The translations under genes were made by a program, and so were the position numbers. The notes under the pieces are model-generated. The model searched no databases and was not told where the DNA came from. It saw only the letters and a list, made by a program, of their open reading frames with translations. Of a stretch of 24,000 nucleotides of DNA, positions 17,183-21,880 are shown one piece after another (the first letter of the stretch is position 1; each line of letters opens with the position of its first letter). The stretch comes from Parasutterella muris (GTDB taxonomy: Bacteria; Pseudomonadota; Gammaproteobacteria; Burkholderiales; Burkholderiaceae_F), in NCBI RefSeq assembly GCF_943193095.1, contig NZ_CALPCV010000006.1, forward strand, positions 39,145 to 63,144. Reading direction: 5' to 3'.

Positions 17183-18124
17183 TTACTCCTGATTATTAGA
17201 AGCCGCTTCTTCAAGCGCTTCTTTGCTGTTCAATGCTTTTGCCGCGATACCCTTGGTAATTCTCTTGGTCATACCGGTAAGCGCAGCGCCGGGGCCGACT
17301 TCATAGAGTTCGGTACAGCCCATCTTTTCCATTTCGCGGACGGTATCGGCCCAAAGAACAGCCGAAGAAACCTGAGCGGAGAGCGCGCCGCGAATATCGT
17401 CGGCTTCGCTTCTGAGACGGACGTCCACATTGTGCAGAACCGGAATTTCAGGCGAGCGCAGTTCAACTGTGCGCAGGCGCTCTTCCATCGCAATCTCGGC
17501 GGGCTTCATCAGTGAAGAATGGAAGGGGCCGGAAACATTAAGACGGATCGCGCGTTTTGCACCCGCTTCAAGACTTTTGCTCATTGCGGCTTCCACTGCG
17601 GCAACGGTGCCGGCAATCACGACCTGTCCCGGTGTATTAAAGTTCACCGCATCGACGACGCCGTTGGCGGCGCACTCAAGGCAGACGGATTTAACTTTGT
17701 CGTCATCGAGACCAAGAATCGCGGCCATCGTGCCTTCACCGACGGGGACCGCCTCCTGCATTTTCTCGGCGCGGAAGCGCACGAGCTTAACGGCATCCTT
17801 AAATTCAAGCGCACCGGCAGCGACCAGCGCGGAGTATTCTCCGAGACTGTGGCCGGCCGCTACGTCGGGGCGTCGGCCGCCTTTGGAAAGATAGTAGCGA
17901 TACATCGCGGTGCTTGCGGTGACCAATGCGGGCTGCGTATTGACAGTGAGGCTCAGCTCCTCAGACGGACCTTCGGCAATGAGTTTCGCTAAATCAAATC
18001 CAAGTACTTCATTCGCTTCTTCAAGCGTCTGCTGCACAATCGGTTCGTCCTTAAGGGTTGAAAGCATTCCGACGGACTGACTGCCCTGTCCCGGAAATAC
18101 AAAAGCAATTTTCTTTTCTGACAT
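17183..18124 (-). CDS. fabD: Malonyl-CoA:ACP transacylase
   Basis: 313-aa ORF containing FVFPGQGSQ and the active-site motif GHSLGEYSAL. Confidence 0.95.
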   Translation of the reverse strand: MSEKKIAFVFPGQGSQSVGMLSTLKDEPIVQQTLEEANEVLGFDLAKLIAEGPSEELSLTVNTQPALVTASTAMYRYYLSKGGRRPDVAAGHSLGEYSALVAAGALEFKDAVKLVRFRAEKMQEAVPVGEGTMAAILGLDDDKVKSVCLECAANGVVDAVNFNTPGQVVIAGTVAAVEAAMSKSLEAGAKRAIRLNVSGPFHSSLMKPAEIAMEERLRTVELRSPEIPVLHNVDVRLRSEADDIRGALSAQVSSAVLWADTVREMEKMGCTELYEVGPGAALTGMTKRITKGIAAKALNSKEALEEAASNNQE

Positions 18125-18144: not shown

Positions 18145-19146
18145 TTAGAATTTAAGCAGTGCGGAAGCCCAGGTGAAGCCGCCCCCGACGCCCTGAAGCA
18201 GAACAATGTCGCCGCGTTTGAGCTGTCCGCTCTGACGGGCCTTATCGAGCGCAAGCGGAACACTTGCCGCCGACGTGTTTCCGTGCTTAGTGACGGAAAC
18301 CACAAGATTGCTCTCAGGAATATTTAACTTGCCGCGAACCATATTCATGATGCGAAGATTTGCCTGATGCGGAATGTAGACATCGACATCACCGGGCGCG
18401 AGATTTGCCGCCGCAAGCACATTCAGCGCGCTTTCCATCATTTTTTCCACCGCGGCCTTAAATACGAGGCGCCCTTCCATACGAATATAGGGGTCTCCGA
18501 CAATCTTGCCGTTGTCAATATGGCTGTCGGCAGCGAGCACGTGCACACCGCGCGTGCCGTCGGCTTTAAGTTCTGTTGCGAGAATTCCGGGTTCGCTGCT
18601 CTTTTCGAGCACCGCAGCGCCCGCTCCGTCACCGAAGAGAACGCAGGTTGTACGATCATCCCAATCCAAAACGCGCGAAAGGCTTTCTGAACCGATCACC
18701 AAGACGCGCTCGGCGGATCCTGCGCGGATCATTGAATCGGCGATTGAGAGCGCGTAAACAAATCCGGAGCAAACCGCCTGAATATCAAAAGCGCCGGCGC
18801 TGCTGGCCTGAAGGAGCGCCTGCACCTGACACGCCGTGCTCGGGAAAACGGAGTCAGGCGTCGTCGTCGCGACGATAATCAGATCAATCTCGTCAGGTGT
18901 AAAGCCGCCGTTTTCCAAGGCACGCTTTGCGGCCTCAAAGGCCATAGCGGTCGTGGAGCCCGCGCCTTCGGCAAAATATCTCTGCTCAATACCGGTGCGG
19001 GTACGAATCCACTCGTCACTGGTTTCTACGCCTCTTTCGGCAAGCTTGGCCGCAAGTTCATCATTGCTGACGATCTTCTCCGGCAGGAAACTTCCTGTAG
19101 AAGCGATTCGGGAATAAATTTTTTCAGACACGAATTTCGTTTCCAT
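18145..19146 (-). CDS. fabH: 3-oxoacyl-ACP synthase III
   Basis: 333-aa ORF containing IASTGSFLP, the active-site Cys in AVCSGFVYAL, PHQANLRI and the C-terminal GGGFTWAS. The true start may instead be the in-frame GTG five codons downstream. Confidence 0.93.
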   Translation of the reverse strand: METKFVSEKIYSRIASTGSFLPEKIVSNDELAAKLAERGVETSDEWIRTRTGIEQRYFAEGAGSTTAMAFEAAKRALENGGFTPDEIDLIIVATTTPDSVFPSTACQVQALLQASSAGAFDIQAVCSGFVYALSIADSMIRAGSAERVLVIGSESLSRVLDWDDRTTCVLFGDGAGAAVLEKSSEPGILATELKADGTRGVHVLAADSHIDNGKIVGDPYIRMEGRLVFKAAVEKMMESALNVLAAANLAPGDVDVYIPHQANLRIMNMVRGKLNIPESNLVVSVTKHGNTSAASVPLALDKARQSGQLKRGDIVLLQGVGGGFTWASALLKF

Positions 19147-19304
19147 TACAAACAGATAAACGAGAGATTACTTTATTCTGGGGTTCTGTGCGAACCGCTT
19201 TTTCAGCATTACAAGAAAAAACAATTTCTAAAATCCGTAAAAACTATCCGGGAAAAATCGCAACACTCACTCCTGTACTTCTGAAAGACACCTGTGCGGT
19301 GCCC

Positions 19305-19336
19305 AATAAAAAAGGAAGGCCCGCTTACGGCCTTCC
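19305..19336 (-). terminator. Rho-independent terminator after the CMD-family gene remnant, upstream of fabH
   Basis: GGAAGGCC(C)G-CTTA-CGGCCTTCC. On the minus strand the hairpin is followed by TTTTTTATT, 27 nt after the TAA at 19365..19363. Confidence 0.65.
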
Positions 19337-19362
19337 CTGCAAAAATATTACGGCTTATAAGA

Positions 19363-19566
19363 TTATTTAAACGAATTCACGACCGCGAGCGCATTCAAAG
19401 TTCTCGGGAATCCGTTGAGCGGAATAGCGATCTGCAGCGCGTCAGCGAGATTCTGCTTCGTGTTTTCTTCTTTGAGATTAGCTCCCGTGTGCGCCTTTAA
19501 CTGAGACTCGCGTCCGCCAAGCGCGGCAATCGCGGCAAAGACAACGAGCTCGCGAACCAGGCGAAA
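19363..19566 (-). pseudogene. C-terminal remnant of a carboxymuconolactone decarboxylase (AhpD-like) family gene, 5'-truncated
   Basis: The last ~66 aa of the 109-aa track ORF are LVRELVVFAAIAALGGRESQLKAHTGANLKEENTKQNLADALQIAIPLNGFPRTLNALAVVNSFK. This matches the CMD-family C-terminal helices (RELv..a.aa.g......H........t.eei.e.l......G.P...na). The N-terminal ~43 aa of the track ORF are simply antisense to the LysR fragment and look non-native. Confidence 0.55.
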
Positions 19567-20269
19567 ATGGAGCTCTCGGAAAAAGGGGAGTTCCTTCTCG
19601 GCATCATCCGCATCGGCATTGTCGAAACTTCTGCCATGCGGATTCTCACACGGGAAATGCAGAAATTTACAGCGCAGTATCCGCACGTCCACTTTGAAAT
19701 CTATTCTGCCGACAGTGATGATTTAAAGCGTTCAATGGACGAGAACAAACTGGATTTAGCCATTCTTCTGGAGCCGGTTGAGAGCGCAAAATACGATAAA
19801 ACATCGATTCCGGCAAAAGATCGCTGGGGGCTTGTCGTTCGAAAGGCAGACTTTCCGAGCGATCGAAAAGAGATGACTTTCAGCGAAGTCGTCGCCACTC
19901 CTTTGATTTTGCCTAGAAGATTCATTGTGCTGGAAGAGATCAGCAGCTGGCTCGAAGTTTCCGATAAGGATTTAAAGGTAGCGGCTTACCACAACCTGCC
20001 CTCCAACGCTCTTGACCTGATCAGCTCCGGCATGGGCGCTCTATTGTGTGTGGAAGGCTCTTTTACCAATCGCGGTAAAAGCGGTTTGAGATTTGTTCCG
20101 ATTACGCCCGAACGAGTTTCCGGTCACGTCGCTGTAAAAAAGAAAAAGTCCTATCGCTAAAGCCGCGGCAATCTTTTGGGAGACGCTCTGCGCGCTGGAT
20201 TCAGCGGAAACCGCAGATGAGGCTCTGAAAAAGCTCGGCGGTCGGCGGAAAAAATCTGCAGGCCTATAA
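19567..20269 (+). pseudogene. LysR-family regulator remnant: effector-binding domain only, with no HTH, and a frameshift near its 3' end
   Basis: The track ORF 19567-20160 starts at the LysR linker (GIIRIGIVETSAMRILTREMQKFTAQYPHVHFEIY) and lacks the ~85-aa N-terminal wHTH. The in-frame upstream sequence is antisense CMD coding and hits a stop at 19498. After the A-rich run at 20137-20148 the LysR-like C-terminus continues in the +1 frame (KRKSPIAKAAAIFWETLCALDS...) to a TAA at 20267-20269. Confidence 0.6.
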
Positions 20270-20299
20270 AACAAAAGCCCGAGTTTGACCTCGAGCTTT
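20264..20299. terminator. Hairpin with flanking A/T runs; a likely bidirectional terminator downstream of rpmF (minus) and the LysR remnant (plus)
   Basis: AAAGCCCGAG-TTTGAC-CTCGAGCTTT is a 10-bp stem with one mismatch. It is followed by TTTCTTGATCTTT on the plus strand and TTTTGTTTTA on the minus strand. Confidence 0.5.
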
Positions 20300-20307
20300 C
20301 TTGATCT

Positions 20308-20323
20308 TTAGGCTTAAGCCTAA
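20308..20323. repeat. Perfect 16-nt palindrome TTAGGCTTAAGCCTAA
   Basis: Read directly from the sequence. It lies in the untranslated stretch between the rpmF stop codon and the downstream terminator, where plsX would normally begin. Confidence 0.3.
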
Positions 20324-20398
20324 GATACAAATTCTTTCATAATTCCTGCCGCATCGTCCGCCGTGGGTCTCGAATGAGAGCAGTCCTCAGGGAAGAAC

Positions 20399-20587
20399 TT
20401 ATTCCTGATCGTCGTTCTTAGTGGCGATGACTTTCTTGCCACGGTAGAAACCGGAAGCAGAAATATGATGACGACGATGTGCTTCGCCTGTTGTCGGTTC
20501 GACAGCGAGCGGAGGATTGGTCAGGAAATCGTGAGCACGGTGATTGCCGCGCTTATTGGTCGACTTCTTATTTTGCTGAACAGCCAT
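20399..20587 (-). CDS. rpmF: 50S ribosomal protein L32
   Basis: The internal ATG at 20587 gives the 62-aa product [19 protein letters not shown]..., a typical L32 N-terminus. The 25 extra N-terminal residues in the track ORF are upstream read-through. Confidence 0.95.
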
Positions 20588-20616
20588 GGTAACCCCACGA
20601 AAATAATATCTAAATC

Positions 20617-20651
20617 TTAAAAACGAGCGGACAACACAAACACTTCCGCTC
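20617..20651 (-). terminator. Terminator-like hairpin between yceD and rpmF; a possible attenuator
   Basis: On the minus strand, GAGCGGA-13 nt-TCCGCTC is followed by GTTTTTAA. The loop is long and the T-tract short, so any termination is probably weak. Confidence 0.3.
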
Positions 20652-20679
20652 TCGGAAAACATCGGATTTTACACTAACG

Positions 20680-21204
20680 TTAATTCTTTCGCAAACCTTG
20701 CAGATCTTTAAGTTTTGCAAAGGGATTTTCTTTCTTCGGCTCTTCTTGCTTAGGCGCTTCAATGTCGGATTTGCACGCGTAGTCGTGAACCGGAACATAA
20801 GGAAGCGAAAGCAGAATCTCCTCTTCAATCCATTCCATCAGATTGAGCTTCTCACTGCCGACAATCACTTCTGTGTCGTCTTCGTCGTCAATCGGAATGG
20901 AATCGGCTTCTTTTTCGTCTCTGGCGAAACGGAAAAGCACGTCGCTTTCAATCGGGAACTCCATCGCTTTGCCGCAGTGATTGCAAATAAGCGGCACTTT
21001 AGCGGCGAGCGTCATGACAGCTCCGGGCCAGCCCTTTTTGGCGGTCATCCCTTTGATCTCAAAAACGCATTCAGCGTCCGTCGGACAGATCTCTTCACGC
21101 AGTCTCGGCATATCGGTAAGCCGAACCTTCCCCGAAATGACACGTCTGTCACGGGCAAGATCATATGCGTTTACATAGTCTGTCGATTTTAGATACTCAG
21201 ACAT
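20680..21204 (-). CDS. yceD: YceD/DUF177 family protein (23S rRNA accumulation protein)
   Basis: 174-aa ORF containing the CxxC pair (LICNHCGKAMEF), an acidic region and the conserved LSLP...HD motif. It sits in the canonical position upstream of rpmF. Confidence 0.9.
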   Translation of the reverse strand: MSEYLKSTDYVNAYDLARDRRVISGKVRLTDMPRLREEICPTDAECVFEIKGMTAKKGWPGAVMTLAAKVPLICNHCGKAMEFPIESDVLFRFARDEKEADSIPIDDEDDTEVIVGSEKLNLMEWIEEEILLSLPYVPVHDYACKSDIEAPKQEEPKKENPFAKLKDLQGLRKN

Positions 21205-21283
21205 TCGGATCCTTCTTGTTAATACCTAGCACTGAACTAGAATAGTCGCATTCATTTATTTCTGTGGATGCGATAACCCAAAA

Positions 21284-21880
21284 ATGGATAATAGATTACA
21301 ACTCATTCTCGGTTCGAGCTCTCCGTTTAGAAAAGAATTGCTCGAACGCCTGCAGCTGCCCTTTACAACTTGTTCGCCCGAAGTTGACGAAACTCCGCTC
21401 AAGGACGAAAAGCCTAAAGACCTGTCCCTAAGACTCTCAATTCTTAAAGCACAGGTGGTCGCCGCTCAGCACCCCGACTGCGTCGTGATCGGCTGCGATC
21501 AGGTACTCGAACTTGACGGCAAACCGCTTGGCAAACCCGGATGCTTCGAAAAGGCGTTTGAGCAGCTCTCTGCGATGAGCGGCAAAGAAGTTGTGTTTCA
21601 CTCCGCAATGACCGTCATCGACGCAAAAGGCAACGTCTCTTCGACCGTTGTTCCCACCGAAATCAAGATGCGCGATCTTCCGCCTGAGGCCATTCGCCGC
21701 TATCTTGAAATCGAGAAACCTTTCAGATGCGCTGGAAGCGCCAAAATCGAGAAACTCGGTATCGCGCTCATCGCTGAATGCCGCTCCTCCGACCCGACAG
21801 CAATTATCGGACTGCCGCTGATTGAACTCACCACCATGCTCGCTAAGGCAGGCATCAGCGTTCTTCCGGAGCTCAGATAA
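21284..21880 (+). CDS. maf: Maf-like nucleoside triphosphate pyrophosphatase (YceF subfamily)
   Basis: 198-aa ORF containing LILGSSSPFRKELLERL, IGCDQV, KPFRCAGSAKIE and IIGLPL. It is divergent from yceD, as in E. coli. Confidence 0.9.
   Translation: MDNRLQLILGSSSPFRKELLERLQLPFTTCSPEVDETPLKDEKPKDLSLRLSILKAQVVAAQHPDCVVIGCDQVLELDGKPLGKPGCFEKAFEQLSAMSGKEVVFHSAMTVIDAKGNVSSTVVPTEIKMRDLPPEAIRRYLEIEKPFRCAGSAKIEKLGIALIAECRSSDPTAIIGLPLIELTTMLAKAGISVLPELR

Follow-up and report, generated by a model that had tools for sequence, protein, structure and literature searches.

The genes rpmF and fabH of Parasutterella muris are separated by a 1252-bp spacer that contains no plsX and holds instead two notable open reading frames (ORFs, taken from the ORF list and Pfam). 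The spacer occupies positions 19147-20398 of a 24,000-nt stretch, referred to here as the window, which covers 39,145-63,144 of contig NZ_CALPCV010000006.1 in assembly GCF_943193095.1. We consider it very probable that the locus reflects an old, clade-wide loss of plsX and plsY, followed much later by an insert found in this species alone, now reduced by a deletion to a scar between two dead gene stubs, and that the missing glycerol-3-phosphate acyltransferase (GPAT) step is carried out by an enzyme of the PlsC family. The two genes that bound the spacer are:

20399-20578, minus strand: rpmF, ribosomal protein L32 (Pfam Ribosomal_L32p)
18145-19146, minus strand: fabH, 3-oxoacyl-ACP synthase III (Pfam ACP_syn_III and ACP_syn_III_C)

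The preliminary description of this DNA had reported that plsX is missing from the interval, and this was confirmed, as no PlsX-like ORF was found in the spacer and a profile search with PF02504 revealed no match there that the first reading might have missed. All five congeners that could be evaluated (G001, G002, G004, G005 and G006) have rpmF and fabH only 145-210 bp apart, with neither plsX nor any remnants between them; a sixth, G003, was left out of the spacer comparison as too incomplete to judge. PF02504 (PlsX) and PF02660 (PlsY) are jointly absent from 22 of 22 sampled genomes of eight genera, Parasutterella included, with sizes of 1.6-2.9 Mb, and contigs from uncultured Parasutterella and from Sutterella metagenome-assembled genomes (MAGs) also carry no plsX. 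Elsewhere in the GTDB family almost every genome sampled has both proteins, and the handful of gaps falls mostly on incomplete assemblies. Of 16 further families in the order, 15 have PlsX, and the remaining one is a 68%-complete genome; contigs of Burkholderia, Delftia, Curvibacter and Pigmentiphaga keep the order yceD-rpmF-plsX-fabH. In a tree of FabH and FabD, the lacking genera lie on one side of a branch with 100/100 support, so that one loss of plsX and plsY suffices, and no traces of plsX were seen in their spacers. This distribution fits a single event in the common ancestor of the Sutterella/Parasutterella clade, in which both genes would have been lost together and rpmF would have come to lie beside fabH. 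Since plsX is absent from the congeners and from the whole eight-genus clade, it was lost long before the species-specific insert described below. The preliminary description had proposed that plsX gave way to an accessory pair which later decayed, but plsX is equally absent from all congeners and from seven further genera without such an insert, and the proposal does not stand.

The question of where, or whether, the phosphate acyltransferase is encoded could be answered for the genome as a whole. In the window genome (99.97% complete, 72 contigs), PF02504, PF02660 and TIGR03703 (PlsB) have no match, tblastn with PlsX proteins from ten relatives gave a best E value of 0.078, and PlsB is absent family-wide; the pathways described for making lysophosphatidic acid run through PlsX/PlsY or through PlsB (Yoshimura et al. 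2007, PMC1950310). Type II fatty acid synthesis (FASII), PlsC, CdsA, a CdsA paralogue and two CDP-alcohol phosphatidyltransferases of the PgsA/Pss type are all encoded. Glycerol-3-phosphate probably comes from glycerol, because GlpK (C37:16425-17918; locus L290:1480-2973) and a GlpD/GlpO-like glycerol-3-phosphate dehydrogenase/oxidase are encoded and GpsA was not found: it is absent from the window genome, from four of the eight lacking genera (Parasutterella among them) and from single genomes of two others. The gpsA neighbourhoods in two lacking genera that keep this gene hold polysaccharide genes and no acyltransferase candidate. GDPD, GlpT and OlsB are likewise absent from the window genome, and no report of this GPAT gap was found in the searchable literature.

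Only three PF01553 acyltransferases are encoded in the genome, all of 226-286 aa and none of PlsB size:

C1:159556-160314 (locus L151:4557-5315): first acyltransferase, PlsC, downstream of glyQS, motif HQSGWE (HX4E variant)
C1:140303-141163 (locus L152:4304-5164): second acyltransferase, OlsA-like orphan, motif HVSWLD (HX4D)
C7:39927-40607: third acyltransferase, 226 aa, in an operon with the CdsA paralogue, motif HSSHLD (HX4D)

The third lies 3 nt upstream of the 318-aa CdsA paralogue (C7:38968-40607, minus strand; L153:3969-5608), and its identity across the family, 62-89%, makes it more conserved than FabH. A gene for an MFS transporter is divergent from this operon. The second is kept in 22 of 22 lacking genomes and is unlikely to make ornithine lipid in this clade, since no OlsB (PF13444) was detected in any of these genomes. 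The phyletic profiles of the second and third are family-wide, and lacking genomes carry 3-4 PF01553 genes compared with 3-10 in most others. When the PDB was searched by sequence with these two proteins, the only match was PlsC of Thermotoga maritima (T. maritima, 5KYM). As cited in PMC1950310, PlsD of Clostridium butyricum is a PlsC homologue that complements Escherichia coli (E. coli) plsB, and we infer by this analogy that one of the three PlsC-family enzymes acylates glycerol-3-phosphate. That the clade instead uses an enzyme of no recognised GPAT family (neither PlsB nor PlsX/PlsY nor its PlsC-type proteins), or that it makes no lysophosphatidic acid and, in spite of its full FASII, depends on lysolipids from the gut, seems to us unlikely without being far-fetched.

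The sequence now lying between rpmF and fabH could be divided by alignment to the congeners as follows:

20329-20398, minus strand: rpmF 3' flank, conserved across the genus; native sequence up to the edge of the insert (aligned to G001, G004 and G002)
19274-20328: insert of ~1.05 kb, absent from the evaluable congeners, with approximate boundaries (congener alignments)
19147-19273, minus strand: native fabH upstream region, loosely alignable to congener spacers (local alignments to G001 and G004 reach 19250-19273)

Congener homology stops at ~20329 on the rpmF side and at ~19250-19273 on the fabH side, and the absence of the remnants from five of five congeners marks the insert as species-specific and late. 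It has no transposase ORF, neither a target-site duplication nor terminal inverted repeats were detected at its ends (repeats reach at most 16 nt and none is placed at the ends), and it thus carries the hallmarks of neither an insertion sequence nor a transposon. A perfect 16-nt palindrome at 20308-20323, 5-20 nt inside the rpmF-side boundary, is specific to the insert and absent from congeners. The ~70 nt past the rpmF stop codon, conserved among Parasutterella species, match nothing in Rfam and show no clearly conserved structure; a scan of 18900-21400 against Rfam gave nothing credible, its sole match being L20_leader at 20 bits (E=0.89).

The spacers of other genera in the clade hold genes of their own, namely an LprI-like gene in G077 (L035:2695-3186), an ADP-ribosylglycohydrolase in G012 (L037:502-1380), a rhodanese in G019 (L058:2623-3096) and an alpha/beta hydrolase in a Sutterella MAG (L072:406-1338). 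As unrelated genes occupy the spacers of different genera, the vacated rpmF-fabH spacer is a recurrent landing site. The variability of this spot, together with the fact that congeners carry homologous CMD and LysR genes elsewhere, could also be read to mean that the ancestor of the genus already had the segment at this site and that each of the other Parasutterella species deleted it cleanly. We give this account a small chance, as it calls for several independent clean deletions, while the congener spacers align with one another and share a native rpmF terminator that is missing from the window. Moreover, the locus with the intact CMD and LysR genes in G004 sits elsewhere, and homologues of its neighbours lie on two other contigs of the window genome.

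Within the insert we distinguished two gene remnants and the junction between them:

19363-19554, minus strand: CMD/AhpD-family 3' remnant, last 62 codons and stop, pseudogene (Pfam CMD and congener alignment)
19548-20269, plus strand: LysR-family remnant, codons ~74 to stop, without the helix-turn-helix (HTH) domain (Pfam LysR_substrate only)
19548-19558: deletion junction, 7-11 nt of overlap between CMD and LysR homology (nucleotide and protein alignments to the G004 CMD and to the LysR of L175 and L176)

The minus-strand ORF (19363-19692) matches Pfam CMD (PF02627) through its residues 46-106, which cover only positions 24-83 of 84. The stub corresponds to residues 193-254 of the intact 255-aa protein of G004 and is 79-84% identical to the intact 255-269-aa proteins of congeners. 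Those of G004 and G001 have a Tat-like N-terminus and two CMD repeats, and beside the congeners' intact gene, ~285 bp away, lies a divergent gene for a 295-aa LysR. With 62 of 255 residues left, the stub has lost the start codon, the signal peptide and the pair of complete CMD repeats that a complete member possesses. At the position of Cys207 (G004 numbering), a cysteine shared by all six close homologues in the alignment, the window strain has Arg and the conspecific contig L177 still has Cys. No intact CMD copy was found elsewhere in the genome. The intact congener protein (L026:7703-8470 and homologues) carries an N-terminal Tat-like signal with an RR; it is probably an AhpD/CMD-type protein of the periplasm, controlled by LysR.

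The plus-strand ORF (19567-20160, 197 aa) matches the C-terminal effector domain LysR_substrate (PF03466) over positions 6-183 of 209 with 68.9 bits, and no DNA-binding HTH_1 (PF00126) was detected in it by Pfam. It aligns to residues ~74-272 of the ~292-295 in intact relatives, which have an Arg or Gln codon where the ORF has its ATG (19567); this start codon is, on that alignment, fortuitous. Compared with conspecific contigs, the window strain lacks 2 nt of an A-run at ~20148, and the resulting frameshift costs the stub its last ~37 residues; the native frame stops at TAA 20267-20269 and gives a 234-aa product in other strains. When 5.8 billion proteins were searched, an HTH-less 234-aa protein, P0001, came out with 97% identity; its cluster includes a member named Parasutterella muris and contains both the 197-aa and the 234-aa alleles. 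The closest full-length relatives are P0002 (292 aa, 77% identity), P0003 (73%), P0004 (71%) and the G061 copy (67%), and outside the species all close relatives are full length with an HTH. A search for loci related to the stub in a collection of genome contigs found no relative, and neither LysR paralogue was found elsewhere in this genome. The sequence upstream of the stub, where a LysR gene would have a promoter and face away from its target gene or operon, is the antisense CMD stub.

The truncated domains and the overlap of homologies bear out the earlier description of the two ORFs as 3' remnants that face away from each other and are joined by a deletion scar. That the remnants abut was likewise correct, with the meeting point now placed at 19548-19558, near the 19560-19570 first proposed: CMD homology extends rightwards to 19554-19558 and LysR homology begins at 19548 ('LANQAK'). 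The 7-11 nt that the two homologies share are as expected for a scar of illegitimate recombination. The abruptness of the junction, taken alone, might suggest an assembly chimera or collapse, but the same arrangement, in the order fabH, stub, rpmF, yceD, maf, recurs in no fewer than 24 contigs that encode P0001, come from unrelated samples, runs and assemblers, and show ~99.3% identity to the window across 6.3 kb. The same junction in so many unrelated contigs excludes an assembly error, and this explanation is hardly credible.

The preliminary description had taken the stubs for the two halves of a classic LysR-target pair, inserted as such in place of plsX, with a small deletion removing the shared promoter and both 5' ends. 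The geometry agrees with this, as a minus-strand CMD and a plus-strand LysR gene have lost their 5' ends and kept their outer ends and terminators, and in congeners an intact CMD gene and a divergent LysR do stand side by side at the spacing given above. The identity of the partner does not agree. The LysR stub is up to 77% identical to regulators of flavodoxin/cyclophilin-like operons and only 55-58% identical to the LysR that accompanies CMD; in the LysR tree it falls among the former (94/99 support), and the CMD-partner LysRs form a separate clade. The LysR copies P0002, P0003 and that of G061 are each divergent from an operon of Flavodoxin_4/cyclophilin-like, DUF4405 and flavodoxin genes, with or without a hydrolase and an aldo-keto reductase (AKR), and CMD homologues are paired with the other LysR paralogue at all loci with flanking sequence (more than 65 of 80 metagenome loci). 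Neither rpmF, fabH nor a P0002-type LysR was found beside a CMD homologue in the 80 metagenome loci, and no intermediate state was recovered. Alignment to related genomes recovered the intact CMD gene with its divergent LysR at another locus, and this genome lacks the flavodoxin/cyclophilin/AKR operon that the closest relatives have. The two stubs were probably not partners, and their arrival as a displacing pair strikes us as very improbable.

The simplest reading is that a larger accessory segment lost its interior in a single deletion, and with it a LysR gene and a target operon as the minimum, though a direct pair of CMD and the stub's type of LysR (LysR-B) could have existed in an unsampled ancestor. 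According to this larger-segment reading, a LysR-regulated accessory segment would have entered the spacer in the lineage of this species, and an internal deletion at the 7-11 nt microhomology would have removed everything from CMD codon ~192 to LysR codon ~74. The deletion would have spanned at least 1.1 kb and probably several kb, as the stubs come from different LysR units. Both stubs would now be drifting neutrally.

Between the LysR stub and its counterpart in the conspecific contig L177, nonsynonymous differences outnumber synonymous ones by 6 to 1 (dN/dS about 1.8); the seven flanking genes, taken together, give 13:14 (dN/dS about 0.29). A further two amino-acid changes downstream of the frameshift bring the stub to 8:1 (Fisher p=0.051 against the flanking genes). 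The frameshifted 197-aa allele is present in the window genome and in at least three other variants of the protein cluster, amino-acid polymorphism is abundant, and a consensus scan found no promoter-like site before the LysR ORF, where antisense CMD sequence and a terminator lie. The frameshift alleles and the 6:1 ratio, together with the mutated cysteine of the CMD stub, indicate that the LysR stub, like the CMD stub, is a pseudogene as far as can be judged from sequence.

Several observations weigh against this account of the locus as a whole. The 234-aa HTH-less ORF, with an ATG after a weak AGG, is intact and identical in many contigs, and the NCBI annotation pipeline (PGAP) counts it among the proteins under the name 'LysR family transcriptional regulator substrate-binding protein'. 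The stem branch of the stub in the LysR tree (0.22) is no longer than those of intact relatives, which means either that decay is recent or that some constraint is left. The selection test comprises nine substitutions and is marginal, no genome with the intact ancestral segment in the spacer was found, so that the order of insertion and deletion is itself deduced, no acyltransferase of the three is confined to the clade lacking plsX and plsY, and no replacement gene stands out. The intact ORF, its annotation and its unaccelerated branch would also suit a living gene, for instance a ligand-binding protein or a titrator of full-length LysR, with only the CMD piece being junk. That gene would have to do without a promoter-like site, tolerate frameshifted alleles, abundant polymorphism and an elevated dN/dS, and act in a genome without a close full-length partner LysR or target operon, while its close relatives outside the species all keep the HTH. 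We regard a living LysR gene as improbable, and any residual function of the stub as equally so, and retain the pseudogene reading.

The remnants are flanked by two terminators, as the preliminary description had recognized; a terminator scan (7 sites found compared with 2.5 expected from shuffles) placed both on the minus strand:

19338-19312, minus strand: intrinsic terminator of the CMD remnant, 10-bp stem followed by a T-run
20300-20273, minus strand: hairpin terminator now serving rpmF

The former (19312-19338) stands just past the CMD stop codon and also blocks read-through towards fabH, and the latter (20273-20300) lies in insert-specific sequence, replaces the native rpmF terminator of congeners and may also end the LysR remnant on the plus strand. 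In congeners the terminator at the same place reads AGAGCTCTC-TTCG-GAGAGCT followed by a T-run, and is absent from the window. Both terminators act in the rpmF-to-fabH direction and do separate the two genes, so that fabH needs a promoter of its own in 19147-19304. The separation is not new, contrary to what the first description had implied, since a terminator directly follows rpmF throughout the genus and fabH must have its own promoter in all congeners. No match to the sigma-70 consensus was found in 19147-19273, and the promoter presumed there was not located.

The genes on either side are those of the usual cluster. FabH, 83-84% identical to the FabH of congeners, is encoded by the first gene of fabH-fabD-fabG-acpP-fabF, and the next genes outwards are:

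20680-21204, minus strand: yceD (Pfam)
17183-18124, minus strand: fabD (Pfam)

The stubs themselves are ordinary, and their value lies in offering a dated case in which a core housekeeping cluster received an insertion that then decayed; they also serve as a warning that annotations such as 'LysR substrate-binding protein' can denote dead fragments. Of wider consequence is that a common family of Betaproteobacteria in the mammalian gut keeps FASII and every later step of phospholipid synthesis and has no known enzyme for the first acylation. The identity of that enzyme bears on the culturing of these bacteria and on their dependence on host lipids.

Compared with the canonical cluster of Beta- and Gammaproteobacteria, yceD-rpmF-plsX-fabH-fabD-fabG-acpP-fabF, the locus has the same genes in the same order and on the same strand on both sides, including the divergent maf; it differs, with the whole Sutterella/Parasutterella clade, in lacking plsX, in having a terminator after rpmF and in carrying lineage-specific cargo in the spacer. 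The stubs resemble the pseudogenes and deletion scars left in host-associated bacteria by reductive genome evolution: they are truncated, promoterless and joined at a short microhomology, they show frameshift alleles and neutral substitution ratios, and their genome no longer has the rest of the regulon. Unlike the usual scars of this kind, they lie inside one of the most conserved housekeeping clusters, are fixed in the species and include an ORF that pipelines call a protein.

Set beside the PlsX/PlsY and PlsB routes, the genome encodes neither, whereas the later steps (PlsC, CdsA and two CDP-alcohol phosphatidyltransferases) and a supply of glycerol-3-phosphate through GlpK are all encoded. 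Mycobacterial PlsM is a PlsC-like enzyme that acylates glycerol-3-phosphate. By comparison with PlsD and PlsM, one of the three small PF01553 enzymes of this genome would offer the simplest way to close the pathway, a likeness of mechanism that stops short of assigning it to the PlsD or PlsM kind.

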